From a virus, in the IMG/VR virus record IMGVR_UViG_3300012630_000124, positions 1-7,111 of that record: 7,111 nucleotides of DNA; one strand, 5' to 3'. Made by a program: the position numbers and the translations under genes. The notes under the pieces were generated by a model that saw nothing but the letters and a program-made list of their open reading frames with translations, had not been told where the DNA came from and did not search any database. This document shows positions 1 through 7,111 of the stretch, one piece after another. The first letter of the stretch is position 1; the number at the start of each line of letters is the position of its first letter.

Positions 1-55
1 CGCTGACCAAGGGAAGACAAAGCGCGTAAAAAATTAGGCTTAGCCATCCGCACAG
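1..55. repeat. Terminal redundancy: 1-55 is identical to 7057-7111, the overlap of a circular contig. The unique genome is 7,056 bp.
   Basis: Base-by-base comparison of the two ends gives 55/55 identity. The repeat lies inside an ORF that reads through the junction in frame. Confidence 0.95.
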
Positions 56-269
56 GTTGATAACGTGGAGAACCGCCAGATAAAGGGGTCGCAATTGCAG
101 GGACCGAAGCCCAGCCACGTTGCATCATTTGCTGTGAGTATGGAAGTGGGGCGTGCATACCTTTCGAATTAAATTTAACAGGTATTACAGCAACAACTTT
201 TGCGGGTTGACCAGCGAAAACAGAACAAGAAAAAATTACAAATAAAAATAAAAATAAAAATAAGCGCAT
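1..269 (-). CDS. gIII: N-terminal segment of the pIII-like adsorption/minor coat protein (signal peptide plus about 70 aa). It continues across the circular junction into 5682..7056, giving about 547 aa in total.
   Basis: Hand translation from ATG at 269-267 gives MRLFLFLFLFVIFSCSVFAGQPAKVVAVIPVKFNSKGMHAPLPYSQQMMQRGWASVPAIATPLSGGSPRYQPV. There are no stops, and it is in frame (216 nt = 72 codons) with the GTG at 53-51, which equals 7109-7107. SD AAGGAG lies 8 nt upstream. The N-terminus looks like a signal peptide with a VFA/G cleavage motif. Confidence 0.8.
   Translation of the reverse strand, partial: MRLFLFLFLFVIFSCSVFAGQPAKVVAVIPVKFNSKGMHAPLPYSQQMMQRGWASVPAIATPLSGGSPRYQPVRMAKPNFLRALSSLGQ
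240..263 (-). repeat. Four perfect tandem copies of the hexamer AAATAA (minus strand TTATTT), encoding (Leu-Phe)x4 in the pIII signal peptide
   Basis: Read directly: aaataa x4 at 240-245, 246-251, 252-257 and 258-263. The repeat is in frame with the CDS that starts at 269. Confidence 0.9.
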
Positions 270-270
270 T

Positions 271-340
271 GAAAAAACTCCTTGTAGCGTCCTGTGGTCA
301 GCCTGCGCGCTCTCGGCATGACCACAGGCCGCCACAAGGA
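271..340 (-). terminator. Strong rho-independent terminator between the major coat gene and gIII
   Basis: On the minus-strand RNA the arms 340-319 and 300-279 form a 22-position stem (20 Watson-Crick pairs, 1 G-U, 1 mismatch) around an 18-nt loop. G then UUUUUU (277-272) follows. The position matches the central terminator after gVIII in Ff phages. Confidence 0.85.
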
Positions 341-346
341 TTTTAA

Positions 347-574
347 TTAACCGCCGTTAGCGCCTTTAGAGATAAAACGACCCAATAAAGACATACCAAC
401 AGATGCACCAAGAACAACAGCCATAACGCCGAAACCAGCAGTTACAGCGGTACCAGCATCAGCGATAACGCCATCTTTAACAGATGTTACAACAGCAGCA
501 TCTAAAGCAGCATGAGCAGTTGAAGCAACGAAAGATAAGCCAACTAAGGCAGCAGATAGAATTTTTGCTTTCAT
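347..574 (-). CDS. gVIII: Major coat protein precursor (pVIII-like), 75 aa. Signal peptide MKAKILSAALVGLSFVASTAHA; mature protein about 53 aa.
   Basis: ATG at 574-572 with GGAG 8 nt upstream. There is an AHA/A signal-peptidase motif. The mature protein has an acidic N-terminus, a hydrophobic core GFGVMAVVLGASVGMSLL and a basic C-terminus GRFISK, resembling M13 AMVVVIVGATIGIKLFKKFTSKAS. Its position is before the terminator and gIII. Confidence 0.9.
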   Translation of the reverse strand: MKAKILSAALVGLSFVASTAHAALDAAVVTSVKDGVIADAGTAVTAGFGVMAVVLGASVGMSLLGRFISKGANGG

Positions 575-596
575 GTGAAAGACTCCATTTTCAAAG

Positions 597-719
597 TTAA
601 GGTCGGGATGACCGTTCGATAATCTGTTTGAACATGCGCAGGGTAATACCCGCACCAAATCCAACCAGCCAAAGAGACAATAAAAGACCGATAATTTTTG
701 CAGCGTCATTTATGTCCAT
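597..719 (-). CDS. gIX: pIX-like minor coat protein, 40 aa: MDINDAAKIIGLLLSLWLVGFGAGITLRMFKQIIERSSRP
   Basis: Hand translated; not in the ORF track. ATG at 719-717 with GAGG upstream, and it starts 3 nt after the gVII stop. It has a single hydrophobic helix. The ...GITLRMF...ERSS tail resembles M13 pIX ...SGITYFTRLMETSS (from memory). Confidence 0.7.
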   Translation of the reverse strand: MDINDAAKIIGLLLSLWLVGFGAGITLRMFKQIIERSSRP

Positions 720-722
720 TTT

Positions 723-818
723 TTACCTCTGGTAACCAGAGTTAAAACCGTCTACAAGTGCGAAACAGGCAGCACAAGCGAAAATAAGTAAATAAAGGTC
801 AGAAATTGTGGCTTCCAT
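723..818 (-). CDS. gVII: pVII-like minor coat protein, 31 aa: MEATISDLYLLIFACAACFALVDGFNSGYQR
   Basis: Hand translated; not in the ORF track. ATG at 818-816 with SD AGGTGA upstream. It resembles M13 pVII MEQV...VVLCFALGIIAGGQR (ME start, CFAL core, G-x-QR end; from memory). Its position is between the ssDNA-binding gene and gIX. Confidence 0.7.
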   Translation of the reverse strand: MEATISDLYLLIFACAACFALVDGFNSGYQR

Positions 819-829
819 TTATCACCTAT

Positions 830-879
830 AAAAAAGCACAACGGGTAAAAGGCTTTTGGAGAAGTACTAAAACCCGTTG
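830..879 (-). terminator. Possible attenuator or weak intrinsic terminator between the ssDNA-binding gene and gVII
   Basis: The minus-strand RNA forms an 8-bp stem CAACGGGU/ACCCGUUG (879-872 with 846-839) around a 25-nt loop, followed by UGC and UUUUUU (835-830). The large loop weakens the call. Confidence 0.3.
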
Positions 880-889
880 CTAAAAAATG

Positions 890-1228
890 TTAAGCCTTAA
901 AAAGCTTAGTAATGTCATTACCGAGGTAATAAGTAACACCAGATGACTTAGCGCCTTGCCAAACTCGACCCCAAACGGGCAAAGTCAAAAGCTGACCTTC
1001 AAACTTTGCTAAATGGGCTGCTATACCTTGTTTAATCAGAGAATCAGAAATTACACATTCAAGTACTTCTGTTTTGGTTTCACCGTATTGGCCTACAGTG
1101 GCGACCTCTAAACCAGCAAACAAAGTTTGGCGGGTTTGGCCGTTTTGGTCTGGTTTGCCAAGAGCTATACGAGTGCCTAAATAAGTACCGGTAAGCGTCA
1201 AACCTTGGAATAAATTTAAATCTGACAT
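890..1228 (-). CDS. Putative ssDNA-binding protein (pV analogue), 112 aa
   Basis: It occupies the gV slot directly downstream of gII and upstream of gVII. SD AAGGAA lies 7 nt before the ATG. The size fits inovirus ssDNA-binding proteins. I recognised no sequence similarity to M13 pV, so the call is positional. Confidence 0.6.
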   Translation of the reverse strand: MSDLNLFQGLTLTGTYLGTRIALGKPDQNGQTRQTLFAGLEVATVGQYGETKTEVLECVISDSLIKQGIAAHLAKFEGQLLTLPVWGRVWQGAKSSGVTYYLGNDITKLFKA

Positions 1229-1238
1229 GTTGGTTTCC

Positions 1239-1622
1239 TTATGAAACTAAGCGCAGTTTTAAAAGCGCTGGGTTGAGGTTGTATTGCTGAGAAAGCGGTA
1301 AAGGTTCGACAAAATCAGCAGGGACTTGCTTCGAGAAATCGACGTTAATCATCTTGATAAACGGAACGACGTTTGACTGGTCGCCAGTCAAATTCATTAG
1401 TTGAGCCAGTGATAAACCAGCGTCGGTAAAATCATGCGTATAGCGGGACCAAGTGTTGCGAGGGTAGTTCGCTTTGGTACGTTCGTAGCCGTCGGTCATG
1501 ATGTTTCTATAAACACCATAGAGGCGGTTTGCTTTTGGATAACTAATTTTGCCGGAATCCGAAACACGGAAAAATTTAGCTTTAAGAGAATTTAAAACAG
1601 ATTCTTTGTCATACGTGTTCAT
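1239..1622 (-). CDS. gX: Candidate nested gene X: in-frame internal start giving the C-terminal 127 aa of pII
   Basis: Met296 (ATG at 1622-1620) sits in FEGATM-NTYD, which matches the Met that starts pX in M13 (FEGDSM-NIYD). An SD-like GAAGGTG lies 5-6 nt upstream. Confidence 0.5.
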   Translation of the reverse strand: MNTYDKESVLNSLKAKFFRVSDSGKISYPKANRLYGVYRNIMTDGYERTKANYPRNTWSRYTHDFTDAGLSLAQLMNLTGDQSNVVPFIKMINVDFSKQVPADFVEPLPLSQQYNLNPALLKLRLVS

Positions 1623-2507
1623 TGTTGCACCTTCAAAAGACTTGAAAACGTCTTTAAATGCTAAACCCCATAGGGTCGGAATTATTTGCGGATTGTCTAT
1701 CTGTAATTGTGGATCTGTGATTAAGCCAAGCGTTGCAGGCAAGCCGCGTTGAGAGAACCAATCTCGATAAATACGAGCCTCAAAACGAACGGCACCAGTG
1801 GCAAATAGCCTAACTTCTGGTCTAGTAATTTCTGCCAATTGGCGTCGGAAATGCTCATACTTGGTTTGAGCATATTTGCGGGTAAGCTTGTTAATTTGCG
1901 AATCGAGTTCAACGAGTTTTAAGTAAACTTTCTTAACGCAAACTTCAGATCCTTTATTGAAATACAAAGTGGTTTTGTATTCTTCATCGTACCAAGGGCG
2001 GGTTTGACCTATCTTGATGTTACGCATCAAATCTAAGCATTGTTGCGCTTGCTGTTGGTTCGGAACATGGGCGGTATAGGTCACATCTAAGTAATCAACT
2101 ACACCATGCTCCCAGTCTAAAAATTCTGTGAGATTGTGATCCCCAAAACAGAACGCCTCGACTACGGCCATGATGCAGAGGTTGAGATTGTCTGAACCGT
2201 AAACGTTGTGACCCTGTAAAAGCTTTGCAGGATTACCAACAATTTTAATGTAAGGAATACGCTTGAAATCTGTGCCGTTGATTATCTTAAAAGCTAAAGA
2301 AGCAAACGAAGAAGGCAGAGATTCGAACTTGTGGAATAACTGCGTAAAAGTAAACTTTTGGTTTTCAGTGTCCCAAGATACACAGCCGGATAAATCAAGT
2401 CCAAAGCGCTCCATTAATGTCCGGTCATCAATAAAGCAAGCACCAGAAGCACTTTCAACATAGTGCTTGCGTAAAAATGGGATGCTGATGGAAACCATAT
2501 CAATCAT
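1239..2507 (-). CDS. gII: Rolling-circle replication initiator (nickase), homologue of Ff gene II protein, 422 aa
   Basis: Motifs match M13 gpII as recalled: MIDM N-terminus; FESLPSSFASLAFKI (M13 FESLPTHYSGIAFKI); NPAKLLQGHNVYG (SPAKVLQGHNVFG); VRFEARI; FEGATMNTYD (FEGDSMNIYD); DSGKISYPKANRLYGVYR (PSGKTSFAKASRYFGFYR); PRNTWSRY; QLMNL...NVVPFIKMINVDFS. ATGA overlap with the upstream 77-aa ORF. Confidence 0.93.
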   Translation of the reverse strand: MIDMVSISIPFLRKHYVESASGACFIDDRTLMERFGLDLSGCVSWDTENQKFTFTQLFHKFESLPSSFASLAFKIINGTDFKRIPYIKIVGNPAKLLQGHNVYGSDNLNLCIMAVVEAFCFGDHNLTEFLDWEHGVVDYLDVTYTAHVPNQQQAQQCLDLMRNIKIGQTRPWYDEEYKTTLYFNKGSEVCVKKVYLKLVELDSQINKLTRKYAQTKYEHFRRQLAEITRPEVRLFATGAVRFEARIYRDWFSQRGLPATLGLITDPQLQIDNPQIIPTLWGLAFKDVFKSFEGATMNTYDKESVLNSLKAKFFRVSDSGKISYPKANRLYGVYRNIMTDGYERTKANYPRNTWSRYTHDFTDAGLSLAQLMNLTGDQSNVVPFIKMINVDFSKQVPADFVEPLPLSQQYNLNPALLKLRLVS

Positions 2508-2737
2508 AGTTTGCTACCATTGTCACCAGTGACGGCAGTTCTTAAAGATACTGCGCGACCAGTTCGAGAGCTTCGAAGATTACCTAAAACTAAATCGCGA
2601 TTTTCGCAACAAAGGGAAGCAGCAAGTTGAAAATCGGCTAAAACAGAAGTAGGGATCCAAAGCGTTATTTTTTCCAAACCTTGAGAACGTTTTGAAATTT
2701 CGTAACGTTGGTTGCGTGATAACTGAGAATTGCTCAT
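2504..2737 (-). CDS. Hypothetical small protein, 77 aa; possibly a small DNA-binding regulator
   Basis: GAGG lies 7 nt upstream of the ATG. ATGA overlaps at both ends (with the 139-aa ORF and with gII) indicate translational coupling. The segment RNQRYEISKRSQGLEKITLWIPTSVLADF fits the R-x-x-R...GL-x-x-h-x-h-W-h-P pattern I recall from small RepB/CopB-like and DUF3018 (MazE-like) regulators. That assignment is unverified. Confidence 0.6.
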   Translation of the reverse strand: MSNSQLSRNQRYEISKRSQGLEKITLWIPTSVLADFQLAASLCCENRDLVLGNLRSSRTGRAVSLRTAVTGDNGSKL

Positions 2738-3153
2738 GAACGAACCTCAGTAAATTCAACCAAGTTGCACAGCCAATCGCCAACAGCTGGAGAGAAAACC
2801 GAAGGATTAGCGCAGCCTTTGCTAACATCTAAATCATCCTTGCCACATACTGGGCAAGGAAGCTGACAACGCTCAGCGGAGCGGCTAACTTCGTTTGCCC
2901 GAGCGCTGTCAACTAAATCAACAACGATAAAAGAAAGGCCGTTTGATTGAAGTTGGTTTTCTATCGTTGATTTAAACTTGGATTGAGCAACTTGAATTTT
3001 TGCCGGAACAATTTTCTTGGCGTTAGCACCCAGAATTTCAAAGTTCGCGTATAGTGTCCATTGCTCGAAAATTGCGCGTACAGGTTCACGAGTTAACGTG
3101 AGTAAAATGCCAGCATTGGCAGCCTGTAAGGCTTTGATTGTGTTCATATCCAT
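2734..3153 (-). CDS. Hypothetical protein, 139 aa, with a Cys-rich C-terminal part (CQLPCPVCG...C...C); first gene downstream of the operator region
   Basis: Strong SD AGGAG lies 9 nt upstream of the ATG at 3153. ATGA overlap with the next ORF. No family recognised. Confidence 0.65.
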   Translation of the reverse strand: MDMNTIKALQAANAGILLTLTREPVRAIFEQWTLYANFEILGANAKKIVPAKIQVAQSKFKSTIENQLQSNGLSFIVVDLVDSARANEVSRSAERCQLPCPVCGKDDLDVSKGCANPSVFSPAVGDWLCNLVEFTEVRS

Positions 3154-3192
3154 GAGAAGCCGCTCCTGATATACTTTTTATAAAAACAAAGT

Positions 3193-3210
3193 GTATCCAA
3201 AATTGGATAC
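3193..3210. promoter_or_regulatory. Operator-like perfect 18-bp palindrome GTATCCAAAATTGGATAC
   Basis: Read directly. It lies in the 104-bp divergent intergenic region and shares the GTATCCA/TGGATAC half-sites with the second palindrome. Confidence 0.7.
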
Positions 3211-3220
3211 GGAATGAAAT

Positions 3221-3238
3221 GTATCCATAGTTGGATAC
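3221..3238. promoter_or_regulatory. Operator-like 18-bp palindrome GTATCCATAGTTGGATAC (7-bp arms)
   Basis: Read directly. Its centre is 28 bp from the first palindrome, and it lies 20 bp upstream of the repressor-like gene ATG. Confidence 0.7.
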
Positions 3239-3257
3239 AAAGTCAAGGGCGTTACGT

Positions 3258-3620
3258 ATGAATTTCAGCAACAAGCTAATTGACCAATACAAAGAATTTA
3301 TAAAAGCGAAATCAGATGCAGCAGCAGCAGCTGAGCTGCCACACATGACCAGAATGAATGTGAGCGCAATCAGAAAAGGTGAAAGAAGACTTACAGAAGA
3401 ACAAGCAGTATTTATTGCTGAAGCTTGCGCGCTCGACGTCGCACTAGTGCTTGTCGAACTAGCAGCTGAATCAGCCAAAAGCGAAAAAGCACAATCAGCA
3501 TGGAACGCATTAGCAAAAAAGCTTAAAGCCGCTTCAAGCTTATTGCTTTTGGCGGCTTTTCTTAGTATTTCAGGCACTTCAGGCTTAAATCAAAGCCAAC
3601 GCATCAAATATAGCCCATAA
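3258..3620 (+). CDS. HTH (Cro/CI/XRE-like) transcriptional repressor candidate, 120 aa, with a hydrophobic C-terminal segment
   Basis: It is the only plus-strand gene and is divergent from the replication/structural operon, like rstR in CTXphi or Pf4r. ATG at 3258 with AAGGG 8 nt upstream. The HTH-like stretch is SDAAAAAELPHMTRMNVSAIRKGERRLTEEQAVFIAEACALD. Confidence 0.75.
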   Translation: MNFSNKLIDQYKEFIKAKSDAAAAAELPHMTRMNVSAIRKGERRLTEEQAVFIAEACALDVALVLVELAAESAKSEKAQSAWNALAKKLKAASSLLLLAAFLSISGTSGLNQSQRIKYSP

Positions 3621-3639
3621 TGTGATTATTACGTTAAAT
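3610..3639. other. dif-like candidate XerC/XerD recombination site (possible attP)
   Basis: ATAGCCCATAA-TGTGATTA-TTACGTTAAAT. The right arm matches the conserved XerD arm TTATGTTAAAT at 10/11. The left arm ends in the conserved (G)C-CATAA of XerC arms. The spacer is 8 nt (dif has 6, cer has 8). No integrase gene is present. Confidence 0.4.
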
Positions 3640-3708
3640 AACAATAACTTAGTGAAAGCTTATTGGCTAAATATAGAGCAACAGCAAAAAAACAGCAACC
3701 CTTGAAAG

Positions 3709-3750
3709 TGTTCCAAAATGGAACAAGGTCCGGCTATTACTGTGCCGGAC
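3709..3750 (-). other. Plus-strand (viral-strand) origin of rolling-circle replication, f1-like core
   Basis: The minus strand reads AGTCCGGCacagtaataGCCGGACcttGTTCCATTTTGGAACA. The f1 ori core is AGTCCACgttctttaataGTGGACtcttGTTCCAAACTGGAACA. Both have a hairpin with a TAATA loop followed by the CTTGTTCCA...TGGAACA palindrome. An AT-rich stretch follows, like f1 domain B. Confidence 0.75.
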
Positions 3751-3793
3751 TACGGCAAGTAACTCAAAAACACGTGCGAAATAGATAAGTTAT

Positions 3794-3815
3794 AAAAAAA
3801 GCCCTTTCGGGCTTT
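3794..3815. terminator. Bidirectional intrinsic terminator hairpin AAAAAAAGCCCTTTCGGGCTTT
   Basis: The GCCC/GGGC stem (extendable to AAAGCCC/GGGCTTT) is flanked by A7 on one side and TTT on the other. On the minus strand it reads hairpin plus TTTTTTT, which would end the gI-ORF69 transcript. On the plus strand it is the first hairpin with trailing Ts after the repressor-like gene. Confidence 0.6.
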
Positions 3816-3828
3816 AGTTTGGCAGAGG

Positions 3829-3844
3829 GAAGCCCAAGGGCTTC
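3829..3844 (-). other. GC-rich stem-loop GAAGCCC-AA-GGGCTTC (candidate packaging signal or minus-strand origin element)
   Basis: Palindrome read directly, in the non-coding region downstream of the last morphogenesis-operon gene. Confidence 0.35.
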
Positions 3845-3869
3845 AAAAGAGTTACGCTCCGCTCCCATC

Positions 3870-3887
3870 AAGGGGCTAACGCCCCTT
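3870..3887 (-). other. GC-rich stem-loop AAGGGGC-TAAC-GCCCCTT (candidate packaging signal or minus-strand origin element)
   Basis: 7-bp stem with a 4-nt loop, read directly, 16 nt downstream of the ORF69 stop. Confidence 0.35.
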
Positions 3888-3902
3888 AATAATCCCCAGA
3901 AG

Positions 3903-4112
3903 TTAGCTAGAGAAATAGCGAATAATCGAAGTAATGATAAATAGTGAAATTAATACAAAATTGAAAAGGCTCAAGCGAAAAGGTTTGGGGTTTGTTTGAT
4001 GGGGTTTGTCATCGGTAGAGAGTTCACGCGGATCTTTATCTAATGTTTGATAGGTTTTAGGTTTAGTTTTTTGATGATGGTCTTTATACCAATCTCTATC
4101 AATCATACTCAT
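3903..4112 (-). CDS. Hypothetical tail-anchored small membrane protein, 69 aa, in the slot occupied by gIV in Ff
   Basis: SD AAGGGA lies 7 nt upstream of the ATG at 4112. The N-terminal 45 aa are charged and Pro/Lys/Asp/Thr-rich, and the C-terminus has the TM-like segment LSLFNFVLISLFIITSII. A hand count gives roughly one-third GC, visibly lower than neighbouring genes. Confidence 0.5.
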   Translation of the reverse strand: MSMIDRDWYKDHHQKTKPKTYQTLDKDPRELSTDDKPHQTNPKPFRLSLFNFVLISLFIITSIIRYFSS

Positions 4113-4123
4113 AAAATAGTCCC

Positions 4124-5359
4124 TTATGTTTTATCTTGTGGGAGAGGCGCAACGGCCGCGATCGATTGCGAAGATTCAGAATGTACGTAATGAGGGCGAC
4201 ATTTTACAAGCTTACTTTCATTTTTAAAAGTTATCGTTGCAGCACATGGGGCAAGATAAGTAACTTTGTAACCCAAATCAGTAGGATAAAAAGACCCATC
4301 ATCAGATTCAAAACAAAAATCCGCATGTGATTTACCAGTTGAGACAGTGCAAGTTATAACAACACTTTCTAAGGTTGACTCAAAATCAGATAGATTTGTT
4401 TGCTGATTTGATTGTTGCTCATCAACTTCATTTACTGGTGCTGGGGCCTGTGATGTCGGATTGGCAGTTGTTAGTTGCTGAGGTTCTTCAGCTTGGGAGA
4501 AATAGTACCAAGCAAAAAAGCAAAGGACAGCAGCGGGAAGTTGCCATCCAAATTTTAAAAGAGGATTTACTTTTTTTGGTACTGGTTGTTTTGCTGGCTC
4601 TATTTTCTGAGGTTCTTTTTTATCGAAGTAGTTAGCGGGCAAAACGGTAAACGATGCCCGCATGTCTATTTGCTTACCGTACTTATTAATAAATGTGTCT
4701 AAGATGAATTGCTGGCTAGTCTTATAGGCCGGATGCAATTCATAACATTTAAAAAACTCAGTCTTAGATAAATGATGACGATCCTTCTTTTTCCCGTTGT
4801 AAACATTAAGAACGTGAAAGCCATAAGGAGCAGTAATCTTAATAATTGGATTAATAAATAGATTCAAAATCTTTCCGAGAATCGGAGAGCTAAAAAGATT
4901 TTTACCGCTTCGACAATGCCAAATTTCCTGCAGAAGTGTTTCGCGCAATTGTTTGTCGACTGCATCAACATCTTGAGATAAAAGCCAAACCCGCCACCCA
5001 AGCTTACGAGATTGCACGAACCAAGATACAACGGCCAAGCGATCTTTATCATTCCATGAGCGAGAGTTAAACGAAGTTAAAAGTTCATCAATGACAATAA
5101 GACCAAAACGGCTTTCGTCGTAAGTGTCTGGGTTGTCTGGGTCTAATTCCGGATAAGCTTTTCCAAGCAATTCCAAATCAATAGAACGAGGAATATCAGG
5201 CAAACGAGTAATATAAGATTTCGCGTTAGGTGCTAAAACATCCGGCTTAATGTCCAAATTAGTAGCAACACGCAAACCCAATTGCAGATAAGTTTTAATT
5301 TCTCTAACCGCGATTTTTGACTTGCCGGAGCCGCGAACACCTTCAACGAAAATTGCCAT
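4124..5359 (-). CDS. gI: Assembly ATPase pI / Zot-family protein, 411 aa
   Basis: Walker A GVRGSGKS. VATNLDI; YDESRFGLIVIDE; NSRSWNDKDRLAVVSWFVQSRKLGWRVWLLSQDVDAVDKQ versus M13 pI NTRSWNDKERQPIIDWFLHARKLGWDIIFLVQDLSIVDKQ (from memory). TM segment WQLPAAVLCFFAWYYF. The C-terminus GYKVTYLAPC...KLVKC resembles M13 GYSLTYIDLC...EIVKC. TAATG overlap with gVI. Confidence 0.93.
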   Translation of the reverse strand: MAIFVEGVRGSGKSKIAVREIKTYLQLGLRVATNLDIKPDVLAPNAKSYITRLPDIPRSIDLELLGKAYPELDPDNPDTYDESRFGLIVIDELLTSFNSRSWNDKDRLAVVSWFVQSRKLGWRVWLLSQDVDAVDKQLRETLLQEIWHCRSGKNLFSSPILGKILNLFINPIIKITAPYGFHVLNVYNGKKKDRHHLSKTEFFKCYELHPAYKTSQQFILDTFINKYGKQIDMRASFTVLPANYFDKKEPQKIEPAKQPVPKKVNPLLKFGWQLPAAVLCFFAWYYFSQAEEPQQLTTANPTSQAPAPVNEVDEQQSNQQTNLSDFESTLESVVITCTVSTGKSHADFCFESDDGSFYPTDLGYKVTYLAPCAATITFKNESKLVKCRPHYVHSESSQSIAAVAPLPQDKT

Positions 5360-5682
5360 TATTTAGTGGTTACCTTAATTTTCAGCGCACGCTGATGGAA
5401 AGTAAAAAGCGCTGAAAGCGCATAGGCCGATGAAATAGCAGATATACAGACAGAAGCATTTGGCGGAACTAAAGAAAGACCCGCAGCTAAAAAACCGTTA
5501 CTAGGTGCGCTGGTTGCCAAAGATGAAAAAAGCTCTGTAAAACCAGTGGCTAAAGCAGTAACAGCAGCTACATAAACACCAATATAAATAACTGCTAAGC
5601 CTAGCCGCTGAGCGGCAAAGGCTACAAAGATACGAAAAAATGAAGTTAGACCAGTGACAATAAACGTAAGAAAAGCAGCCAT
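5359..5682 (-). CDS. gVI: pVI-like minor coat/termination protein, 107 aa, multi-pass hydrophobic
   Basis: It lies between gIII and gI with TAATG overlaps at both ends. It is strongly hydrophobic. LSLVPPNASVCISAISSAYALSALFTF resembles M13 pVI LILPSNALPCFYVILSVKAAIFIF (from memory). Confidence 0.8.
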   Translation of the reverse strand: MAAFLTFIVTGLTSFFRIFVAFAAQRLGLAVIYIGVYVAAVTALATGFTELFSSLATSAPSNGFLAAGLSLVPPNASVCISAISSAYALSALFTFHQRALKIKVTTK

Positions 5683-7111
5683 TATGGGGTTACCTCAAGT
5701 GTGCGATGGAAGATACGGAAACAAAGTAACAGCGTGTAAATTGATAAAAGCCAACTCACAACAGGTTGACCCCAATCATTATAAGGGGGGCAATGTTGGT
5801 CAACAGTGATGGTTTTTGGCTCACCTCGAATAGATACAGAGAGATTAAAACCGCGACAGCCACCACTAGTTGGTAAGGTTACAAAATCCAAAAGCTTTGG
5901 TTGACCGTTAAAATTAGGTAACGGTGATTCGATGAAATCAGTAAGTTTTTGGTGCTCTTGGGTGAGCTTATCAACTTCAGTTTGTACACTCTGACCTTGC
6001 ACGGCCTGATTTCCCCAGCTGTTATTTGAAGCCTCATATTGAGATTTGGTTAGACCGGGGAATTTAGACCAATCAATAGGAGTTTCTTCTTTTGGTGGTG
6101 CGTCAGGTGTAATAGTTTGATTAGTGTATAAATCAACAAAGGTACTGCCTTCGTGCCAGTTGTTAATCTGGACTAATAAATTAGGCATCATTTCTGCTGG
6201 TACATAATTAGGGGCGTTTGGGTTGGTATGCTGCACAGTACCAGTAGCAATAGCTTCAGCAGCATCAGCAAAAGAGGGGCTAACAGGGTCAAAAGTCGGA
6301 TTATCAAATAAATCCGGATAAGGTGCGCCAGTCTCCCAATCAACAAAATCATCTAGACCAATATCAGCATCAATCAAAGGATTAGGGTTTTTTGCATATT
6401 GTTCATTTAGCCAAGTCTCATCAATCGCAGAAACTCGTATGTTATTAGTTGGCCGGAAGCACGAATGAGCATTATTAATGAATAAAGGGCCATTGGTGTA
6501 ATCTGGATTTGCATCCGGTGGACAAATAAAACCTTCTTGATTTTGACCAAGCCCAACAGAACCAGCGACAAACTGAGTGCCAACAGAAGGCGCGGAAGTA
6601 TTACAAACAGGCTGACCAGATGAATTAGCAAAACAAGTAGTTTGGACAGCAGTAGAGACAATTTTATAACCGATAGTGGCACTAGATAAATTAATAGTAT
6701 TAATGGACTCAAACGAGCGATTAATAGTGAGCGTGATATTGGGTGCCATTTCAATATTTTCAGAAGCTTTAGGCAATTGAATTTGTGAAGATACGGATTC
6801 AGAGGCTTTAGAAACACAATCAGCGAACGTAGTACCAGTGAAAGCGCCTAAGTGAGTATCAGAAGGATAATAAGCATTACAAGTAACGAAAGTTTGCGGT
6901 TTAGCGGGGACATGATCAGTAAAATCTATTTCACCTGGTTGCGATGCATCTTCAGTATCAAAGCACAGAGAAGTAAACAATTGAGAAGTACAATTTGCCT
7001 CATAAGCACCATAAGCAATCAAAGCAGCTTTACCAGCTGGAGTCATATTAGCGGCACGCTGACCAAGGGAAGACAAAGCGCGTAAAAAATTAGGCTTAGC
7101 CATCCGCACAG
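5682..7111 (-). CDS. gIII: Main body of the pIII-like adsorption/minor coat protein. The ORF-track start at 7109 is an artefact of linearisation.
   Basis: This is the largest ORF and sits immediately after the major coat gene and terminator, as gIII does in Ff. It has several Cys pairs. The C-terminal hydrophobic anchor VVSWLLSIYTLLLCFRIF is preceded by C...C, like the pIII C-domain. Its stop overlaps the gVI start (TAATG at 5684-5680). Confidence 0.85.
   Translation of the reverse strand, partial: VRMAKPNFLRALSSLGQRAANMTPAGKAALIAYGAYEANCTSQLFTSLCFDTEDASQPGEIDFTDHVPAKPQTFVTCNAYYPSDTHLGAFTGTTFADCVSKASESVSSQIQLPKASENIEMAPNITLTINRSFESINTINLSSATIGYKIVSTAVQTTCFANSSGQPVCNTSAPSVGTQFVAGSVGLGQNQEGFICPPDANPDYTNGPLFINNAHSCFRPTNNIRVSAIDETWLNEQYAKNPNPLIDADIGLDDFVDWETGAPYPDLFDNPTFDPVSPSFADAAEAIATGTVQHTNPNAPNYVPAEMMPNLLVQINNWHEGSTFVDLYTNQTITPDAPPKEETPIDWSKFPGLTKSQYEASNNSWGNQAVQGQSVQTEVDKLTQEHQKLTDFIESPLPNFNGQPKLLDFVTLPTSGGCRGFNLSVSIRGEPKTITVDQHCPPYNDWGQPVVSWLLSIYTLLLCFRIFHRTLEVTP
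7057..7111. repeat. Second copy of the 55-nt terminal redundancy (duplicate of 1-55)
   Basis: Identical to 1-55. 55 is a common de Bruijn assembler k-mer length. Confidence 0.95.

Follow-up and report, generated by a model that had tools for sequence, protein, structure and literature searches.

The 7,111-nucleotide virus genome IMGVR_UViG_3300012630_000124 (positions 1 to 7,111 of that IMG/VR record; the whole stretch is called the window below) is a temperate filamentous phage of ~7.1 kb, with related prophages in Rheinheimera and relatives. Between positions 3154 and 3620 it carries a module that most likely controls lysogeny and immunity. As judged from sequence comparisons, a 120-residue repressor would bind two palindromes as a dimer, via an XRE-type helix-turn-helix (HTH), and thereby control the early operon on the opposite strand. 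A first interpretation of the letters alone (the sequence-only reading) had proposed a repressor and two operators governing the divergent early operon of a temperate inovirus. This proposal is supported by the co-variation of operators and repressor among related phages, by the exchange of both as one cassette, and by the nesting of one operator within a predicted early promoter.

Paired palindromes in the divergent region

The repressor gene is the sole gene on the plus strand and is divergent from the replication and structural operon, at the coordinates (3258-3620) that had been proposed for it; the open reading frame (ORF) listing, Pfam and PHROG place all other genes of the window on the minus strand. 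The divergent region covers 104 bp (3154-3257) between the start of ORF139 (3153), the first gene of the leftward operon, and the repressor ATG (3258). It contains two 18-bp palindromes with identical half-sites and centres 28 bp apart, as first described, which are the predicted operators O1 and O2. The half-site GTATCCA occurs four times in the 7.1-kb window, always within O1 or O2, against an expectation of 0.45, and four copies were reached in one of 200 shuffles. Similarly, the 7-N4-7 pattern is confined to O1 and O2 even when three mismatches are allowed (expected 0.16). The pair is not due to chance, since paired palindromes recur at equivalent positions in ~18 independent relatives. 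A third half-site, TATCCAT at 3147-3153, was considered and rejected: ATATCCAT(G) is kept in relatives of other operator classes and encodes the conserved Met-Asp-Ile/Met start of ORF139.

A predicted leftward early promoter (PL), which agrees with the consensus at 9 of 12 positions, has a spacer of 17 nt from -35 to -10 that O2 fills exactly. Counted on the predicted leftward transcript, O1 occupies ~+2 to +19; it lies ~17 nt downstream of a plus-strand TATACT. Of 18 relatives, 12 show the same nesting at their highest-ranking promoter-like site on the minus strand, and wide-spaced variants have a TTGACA within the operator itself. Moreover, 16 of 18 loci have kept the plus-strand TATACT at a distance of 80-105 nt from the repressor ATG, on its upstream side. 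In 10 of them a TGN precedes it, the usual form being TGNTATACT, which gives an extended -10. The version in the window, TGATATACT, lies right at the left border of the exchanged cassette described below. By its sequence, this element is probably the repressor promoter; another possibility is a conserved element in the leader of the leftward mRNA. A further element, (T)GTGATCCTTT, is shared between O1 and O2 by the relatives with wide operator spacing (45-47 bp), namely L006 (9929-10000), L014, L015, L023, L024 and L031. It could be a site for an extra host factor, as its TGTGA resembles a CRP half-site.

Co-variation of operators and repressor

Related loci, ~30 in number, were gathered from genomes, metagenomes and viral contigs. 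Nearly all of them have two 18-bp 7-4-7 palindromes at equivalent distances upstream of the repressor ATG. In any one phage, the half-sites of O1 and O2 are identical; between phages they differ, and the differences follow the recognition-helix region of the repressor. At least 10 specificity classes of half-site and recognition-helix region are found (Table 1).

Table 1. Operator half-sites, the loci that carry them and the recognition-helix region of the accompanying repressor
Half-site	Loci	Recognition-helix region
GTATCCA	window, L002, L021	MTRMN(V/L)SAIRKGER
GTAATCA	L004, L030	LNKQNL(S/H)AIRKG
GTTGTCA	L006, L025	MNKGNLSKIRKG
GTTTTCA	L008, L009, L020	MTKGNLS(S/Q)VKSG
TCTTTCA	L022	ITSGNLSQVKSG
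GTTCGC(A/G)	L012, L013, L033	(S/C)T(R/K)SIVSE(I/V/L)KSG
GTAATAA	L028	
GTTCACC	L029	
GTCACCA	L027	
ATACACA	L011	

The DNA of the window and that of L020, L009 and L022 are 93-100% identical at 3058-3177, ~50% identical at 3178-3387, and again highly similar past ~3400. The left border of the divergent block falls directly 3' of TATACTTTTT (3179/3180) and the right border near codon 46 of the repressor, just before LTEEQA. With borders at these two places, the exchanged unit is exactly both operators plus the HTH, a cassette of ~215 bp. Judged from these sequences, the pattern of half-sites and helices goes beyond shared ancestry, given the exchange of the cassette.

The two small early genes behave differently. 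L022 has other operators, yet the operator-proximal half of its ORF139 DNA is ~90-100% identical to that of the window. ORF77, the second early gene, is retained in L020 despite different operators, whereas L002 has the operators of the window but no blastn match to ORF77 DNA, and has an ORF of 89 aa in its place. ORF139 and ORF77 do not, therefore, track operator specificity: near-identical DNA at 3058-3177 accompanies other operators in L020, L009 and L022, and the same operators accompany a different second gene in L002. Together, the cassette exchange and the independence of these two genes constitute strong, though indirect, sequence evidence that the 120-aa protein reads the palindromes.

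The repressor protein

In Pfam, the 120-aa protein matches DUF3693 (PF12472) over residues 65-108, with 24.8 bits against a gathering cutoff of 21 (E 1.7e-5), and in PHROG it matches phrog_638, 'transcriptional regulator', over residues 1-106 (2.7e-24). Most of the 41 homologs found carry a precomputed PF12472 match. An AlphaFold model built with 37 homologs (predicted local distance difference test score 77) has six helices, of which 20-26 and 32-39 form an HTH. Furthermore, XRE-type HTH proteins predominate among the 50 PDB matches listed by Foldseek, with probabilities up to 0.96; they include ClgR, restriction-modification controller proteins (C.BclI), P22 c2, 434 Cro, lambda cI, SinR and ImmR. 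A sequence search against the PDB gave non-significant matches only (E >=0.46). The predicted fold and the family thus make the protein an XRE-type HTH protein with the HTH at its N-terminus; the sequence-only reading had already called the gene an HTH gene.

In the alignment of homologs, residues 1-~42 are variable and mosaic, and the following LTEEQA...VLVELAAE...W..LAKKLKA is almost invariant. A conserved hydrophobic helix spans residues ~89-110 (window 3522-3587), with KKLKA before it and a short polar tail after it. Its Kyte-Doolittle mean over 19 residues falls between 1.5 and 2.5 in almost all 39 proteins scanned and is 1.34 in ORF154 of the Vibrio phage VGJphi. Going by sequence, this helix could be a tail anchor or an oligomerisation helix. 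With regard to distribution, tblastn with the window repressor gave one weak Vibrio match in the phage collection, and the family consensus reached VALG_phi6, VCY and f237-like phages. A subfamily profile recovers 801 cluster representatives at E<=1e-3 and only three at E<=1e-30; the broad family is sizeable and the subfamily of the window is small.

Proposed mechanism of the switch

In the proposed mechanism, the 120-aa protein would bind the two 18-bp palindromes as a dimer through its XRE-type HTH. With O2 between the -35 and -10 of PL and O1 over the start of the leftward transcript, occupation of both operators would block RNA polymerase. This block would shut off the operon of ORF139, ORF77, gII, gV, coat and assembly genes, and hence replication from the adjacent Ff-type origin as well as virion production. 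The repressor gene itself would be transcribed from TGATATACT, upstream of both operators. If that element is indeed its promoter, it faces PL, the two transcripts overlap by ~30 nt, and both operators lie in the repressor leader, which would allow negative autoregulation. The host XerCD recombinases would integrate the phage at attP (3610-3639), leaving the repressor gene terminal in the prophage. As specificity would be carried by a swappable cassette of operators and HTH, heteroimmune phage types would arise.

Several points weigh against this reading. The promoters are called by consensus match only, and promoter-like sites are no more numerous in the region than in shuffled sequence. The distance between operators differs among the relatives (24-35 bp; 45-47 bp in a subset), which means that a geometry for cooperative binding, if there is one, is not kept. 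No Pfam HTH model is significant on the repressor sequence of the window, and the Foldseek E-values are weak (0.1-1). Additionally, neither a Cro-like partner nor a LexA box nor a peptidase domain was found, the search for a LexA/SOS box (CTGT-N8-ACAG with at most one mismatch) covering 3154-3257. Lastly, the protein of the same family in the Xanthomonas phage XacF1, ORF12, was read by its authors as an integration-stabilising factor, a role that does not amount to proof of transcriptional repression.

Integration and lysogeny

The lysogenic lifestyle predicted by the sequence-only reading is supported by the relatives, which are integrated prophages. They reside in the chromosomes of an Alteromonadaceae metagenome-assembled genome, of Rheinheimera and of Alkalimonas, each time with the repressor gene at the prophage edge. 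The stop codon of the repressor gene in the window (TAA, 3618-3620) lies inside the XerC-like arm of a dif-like attP. Because of this overlap, the phage probably integrates via the XerCD recombinases of its host, as far as sequence can tell. The central region of attP, TGTGATTA, is unusually long (8 nt) and starts with TGT as in dif.

The junctions of the integrated relatives are in keeping with such a site. An attR reading ...C[CT][CT]ATAA TGTATA TTATGTTAAAT is present at the repressor stop in 15 of the 17 sequences scanned, the exceptions being the window itself and L028. In the integrated relatives, a perfect TGTATA-TTATGTTAAAT is regenerated on the repressor side. At attL, L002 and L020 retain the central region and the XerD arm of the phage, and the junctions are dif hybrids. 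The episomal contig L022 has an attP of the same type as the window. In four homologs the repressor ORF reads through dif and ends in '...HNVYYVK'. The canonical host XerC arm, GCGCATAA, was not found at the left prophage junction; in its place, the left junctions of L002 (3159-3240) and L020 (550-631) read ATA(A/G)CCCATAA, which could be an unusual host dif XerC arm or the remnant of an element integrated earlier. With a dif-like site that has both arms, dif hybrids, and a dif regenerated at one end, the window fits a Xer-dependent integrative element (IMEX) with a double-stranded attP of the VGJphi type. Xer-dependent inovirus prophages of Vibrio are described as those that 'begin with rstR', and the motif of the window is consistent with the Vibrio att motif (PMC12715192).

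As the stop codon lies within the XerC arm, integration leaves the repressor of the window unchanged. In VGJphi (a 154-aa ORF) and XacF1, by contrast, the ORF spans attP, and that of XacF1 is reported to be split upon integration (PMC4076744). The position of the 3' end of the gene within attP means that Xer recombination changes the 3' untranslated region of the repressor and, in some relatives, its C-terminus. The hydrophobicity of residues ~89-110 is of transmembrane grade and the basic KKLKA precedes them; on this basis, the DUF3693 tail might anchor the repressor in the inner membrane, and the 3' end wired into attP might couple the immunity switch to the integration state and the membrane assembly site. 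We regard this combined idea as speculative and rather unlikely. If it were true, the dosage, location or stability of the repressor could report whether the genome is episomal or integrated.

Comparison with known regulators

On sequence comparison, the repressor belongs to the DUF3693 / PHROG 638 regulators of Xer-dependent inoviruses and is neither RstR nor Pf4r. The likeness to rstR/ig-2 or Pf4r that had been suggested holds, then, for rstR/ig-2-like working and not for descent, as the protein is homologous to neither. Several described members of the family come from Vibrio phages. ORF154 of VGJphi is 28% identical to the window repressor (2e-13), matches DUF3693 at 1.2e-20 and has the functional attP annotated inside it. 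The 'regulatory protein' of VALG_phi6 is 32% identical (7e-15), and its ORF runs into the Vibrio dif; ORF11 of VCY-phi is a further family member. Cp8 of the Xanthomonas phage Cf1c matches DUF3693 at 5.2e-14, and hhalign relates it to the window family profile with 89% probability (2.1e-6). The Vpf122 (ORF9) group of Vf33/f237 is annotated as a transcriptional repressor and treated as a positional analogue of RstR (PMC10790759). ORF12 of XacF1 is stated to be 99% identical to Cp8 of Cf1c and contains attP (PMC4076744).

The regulators of VGJphi, VALG_phi6, VCY and Cf1c/XacF1, together with Vpf122, share with the window protein its size class, an N-terminal HTH with a C-terminal hydrophobic segment, and a gene opposite in strand to the replication and structural genes. 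In the window, as in VALG_phi6, VGJphi and XacF1, the gene runs at its 3' end into a dif-like attP, hence its place at the prophage edge (PMC4076744; PMC12715192). The hosts of the known members are Vibrio or Xanthomonas, whereas those of the window clade are Rheinheimera and Alkalimonas, and the 8-nt central region of attP likewise sets the window apart from DUF3693 phages. VGJphi differs further in having a Rep_trans protein in place of the Ff/IKe-type pII and origin of the window. In VGJphi, VCY and Cf1c, a DUF3653 gene stands beside the DUF3693 gene. XafT, a known Xer activator, presumably belongs to DUF3653, and no such (XafT-like) ORF is present at 3640-4124 of the window. The DUF3653 gene is accessory and not defining, since the window fits the 'rstR ... 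zot' terminal-pair type (PMC12715192). In the literature searched, no operator definition was found for any DUF3693 family member, nor any report on Rheinheimera inoviruses.

The overlap of gene and attP raises the possibility that the 120-aa protein is mainly a recombination accessory factor, which promotes or stabilises Xer integration, its transcriptional effect being secondary. This overlap is common to the window, VGJphi, VALG_phi6 and Cf1c/XacF1 (PMC4076744). Moreover, intact ORF12 stabilises the XacF1 prophage, and deletion of its 5' part delays integration and destabilises the prophage (PMC5666396). However, an unstable prophage is also expected upon loss of a replication repressor, and the palindromes lie ~400 bp from attP, over a promoter and not at the recombination site. 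The protein known as an Xer activator is another one, XafT, which is described as the regulator partnering rstR (PMC12715192). We consider a chiefly recombinational role very unlikely.

A transcriptional switch, the favoured reading, has a working parallel in RstR/ig-2 of CTXphi. There, too, a small HTH repressor is divergent from the replication operon, and a variable cassette of repressor and operator between conserved flanks is the basis of heteroimmunity. The two systems differ in that the window has no SOS box and its operators are short symmetric palindromes, whereas RstR sites are larger and non-palindromic and LexA acts as co-repressor. The attP of CTXphi forms on folded single-stranded DNA. 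Integration that depends on XerCD/dif, as is probable for the window, and a repressor gene at the prophage end are again common to both (PMC12715192). In terms of homology, Vpf122 aligns with RstR at E = 0.17 (PMC10790759). In tblastn, neither the window protein nor the family consensus matched an Affertcholeramvirus record at E<=1, and such records are in the collection.

Pf4r is of another family, being a P2 C-type regulator, and an integrase and an excisionase are encoded by Pf4 itself. The window differs from Pf4 here as well, as Pfam finds no integrase or excisionase family among its nine main ORFs. Pf4r, which is titled 'repressor C protein', controls superinfection in the temperate inovirus Pf4 (PMC8402870). 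The best structural matches are P22 C2, 434 cI/Cro and the restriction-modification C proteins, which use paired, symmetric, dimer-sized sites of ~18 bp overlapping promoter elements, as seen in the window. They differ from the window protein in that there is no sequence-level membership, and it lacks a C-terminal peptidase or dimerisation domain of the lambda/P22 type and has the DUF3693 tail instead.

Early genes and other explanations of the palindromes

ORF139 and ORF77 precede gII in the leftward operon, so gII is not its first gene. ORF139 has four invariant cysteines (C100, C103, C114 and C129) and a conserved C-terminal motif, CxxCGK...GCxNPSVFSPxVGDWxCN. It has no Pfam, PHROG or NCBIfam family; NCBIfam likewise gave nothing useful for the repressor, ORF77 or ORF69. 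The structural model of ORF139 has a pLDDT of 63 with the Cys-rich tail unmodelled, and its Foldseek matches are scattered, with no meaningful fold. ORF139 was considered as a Cro-type partner and rejected, as it does not co-vary with the operators. In L004 (8247-9173), a prophage in the metagenome-assembled chromosome OW818678.1, a DNA methylase gene (PF00145) separates the small early ORFs from a gII shortened to 343 aa.

It is conceivable that the palindromes mainly bind another factor, which could be a host regulator or an early, Cro-like product of ORF139 or ORF77, and that the 120-aa protein acts elsewhere. Both early ORFs are without an assigned function, residues ~22-42 of ORF77 ('EKITLWIPTSVLADFQLAA') read by eye as a short beta-alpha motif resembling a ribbon-helix-helix, and some relatives have the extra conserved element TGTGATCCTTT between the operators. 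Yet it is the N-terminal 46 codons of the repressor alone that follow operator specificity, and neither ORF139 nor ORF77 does so, which makes this explanation highly improbable. The least credible alternative is that the palindromes act as nucleic-acid structures, in the early leader as an attenuator or terminator at the RNA level, or on the packaged strand as a single-stranded DNA hairpin (e.g. for complementary-strand priming): 3186-3245 does fold into one long hairpin on either strand (-23 and -19.6 kcal/mol, z = -6.5 and -5.4) and a terminator scan flags both palindromes on the minus strand, but such a fold is the automatic outcome of two identical palindromes, the stems are just 7-8 bp without a proper T-run or an Rfam match, the equality of O1 and O2 half-sites in the relatives is unneeded for a hairpin, and the palindrome sequences change by class with the recognition helix and are exchanged along with it.

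Genome setting and replication module

The window is a complete filamentous-phage genome and matches a 7086-nt contig of run ERR3489838. Replication, coat and assembly genes, together with small ORFs, account for its full length (Table 2). By megablast, the whole genome has no match among 50,697 phage records, and none is close at the DNA level.

Table 2. Features of the window, from its right end to its left end
Feature	Position	Strand	Remarks
gIII-like	7109-5682	-	
gVI-like	5682-5359	-	
gI, Zot-type	5359-4124	-	
ORF69	4112-3903	-	phrog_13107
Ff/IKe-type viral-strand origin	3750-3708	-	aligns with the annotated IKe origin stem-loops and the f1 origin
dif-like attP	3610-3639	+	ATAGCCCATAA / TGTGATTA / TTACGTTAAAT: XerC-like arm, 8-nt central region, XerD arm (10/11)
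Repressor gene	3258-3620	+	120 aa; sole plus-strand gene
PL, predicted leftward early promoter	3246-3218	-	-35 TTGACT (3246-3241), 17-nt spacer, -10 TACATT (3223-3218); 9/12 consensus matches
Operator O2 (predicted)	3221-3238		GTATCCATAGTTGGATAC; GTATCCA-TAGT-TGGATAC; 7-4-7, or 8-4-8 with T3220/A3239; nearer the repressor gene
Operator O1 (predicted)	3193-3210		GTATCCAAAATTGGATAC; GTATCCA-AAAT-TGGATAC; perfect 8-2-8
Exchangeable cassette, ~215 bp	3180-~3395		both operators and repressor codons 1-~46 (HTH)
Candidate extended -10 of the repressor gene	3167-3175	+	TGATATACT; upstream of both operators
ORF139	3153-2734	-	first gene of the leftward operon; 13 homologs, clade-restricted
ORF77	2737-2504	-	second early gene; phrog_11804
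gII, Ff-type replication initiator with pX domain	2507-1239	-	PF05144 1.3e-43, PF05155 3.1e-14
gV-like	1228-890	-	PF17426 (Putative_G5P)
Small coat genes, including gVIII	gVIII ~580-347	-	

The sequence-only reading had placed the switch between the origin and gII of an Ff-type backbone. The insertion itself is confirmed, as an Ff/IKe-type origin and the pII gene flank the module. The stretch of ~1.2 kb from origin to gII holds attP and the two early ORFs as well as the repressor gene and operators. With Ff and IKe, the window shares a pII with both Pfam domains, the nick hairpin and the pII-binding repeat. The gII product is 37% identical to pII of IKe and of the Erwinia PEar phages over 97% of its length. 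In the origin, a nick hairpin, GTCCGGC-ACAGTAATA-GCCGGAC (3750-3728) with a TAATAG loop, is followed by a pII-binding inverted repeat, TGTTCCATTTTGGAACA (3725-3709). The Ff phages differ in having no repressor between origin and gII, their origin lying ~225 nt upstream of gII. As for the backbone, the Ff-type label is correct for the replication module and origin but not for the whole: no secretin ORF (gIV) is present in the window, gI is Zot-type, and gV is not Ff-type.

ORF69, a small conserved ORF 3' of the gI/Zot gene with a hydrophobic C-terminus, is present in the relatives too (a 63-aa ORF in L002). Two GC-rich hairpins follow in the intergenic stretch at 3798-3815 and 3871-3884, namely AAAGCCCGAAAGGGCTTTTTTT, which is terminator-like on the minus strand after ORF69, and GGGGCGTTAGCCCC. 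They may serve in termination, in packaging or as an origin for the complementary strand.

Significance

The arrangement of a repressor with a dif-type attP is already known in the Xer-dependent inoviruses of Vibrio and Xanthomonas, and the understanding of temperate inoviruses as such is unchanged by the module of the window. Its novelty lies in another host group, in the combination with a replication module of the Ff/IKe type, in an attP spacer of 8 nt, and in a model of operators and promoters that is spelled out and backed by co-variation. The lysogeny module of repressor and dif-attP is thereby extended to phages of Rheinheimera and relatives. As it is joined here to an Ff/IKe-type origin and pII, the lysogeny module moves between inovirus replication backbones. 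Moreover, the clade offers a natural specificity table, in which at least 10 repressor classes with a near-identical scaffold each have their own 7-4-7 operator in the same promoter context. From it, operators can be predicted throughout the DUF3693 family (in VGJphi, f237-like and Xanthomonas phages among others), and it could furnish a set of orthogonal repressor/operator pairs.

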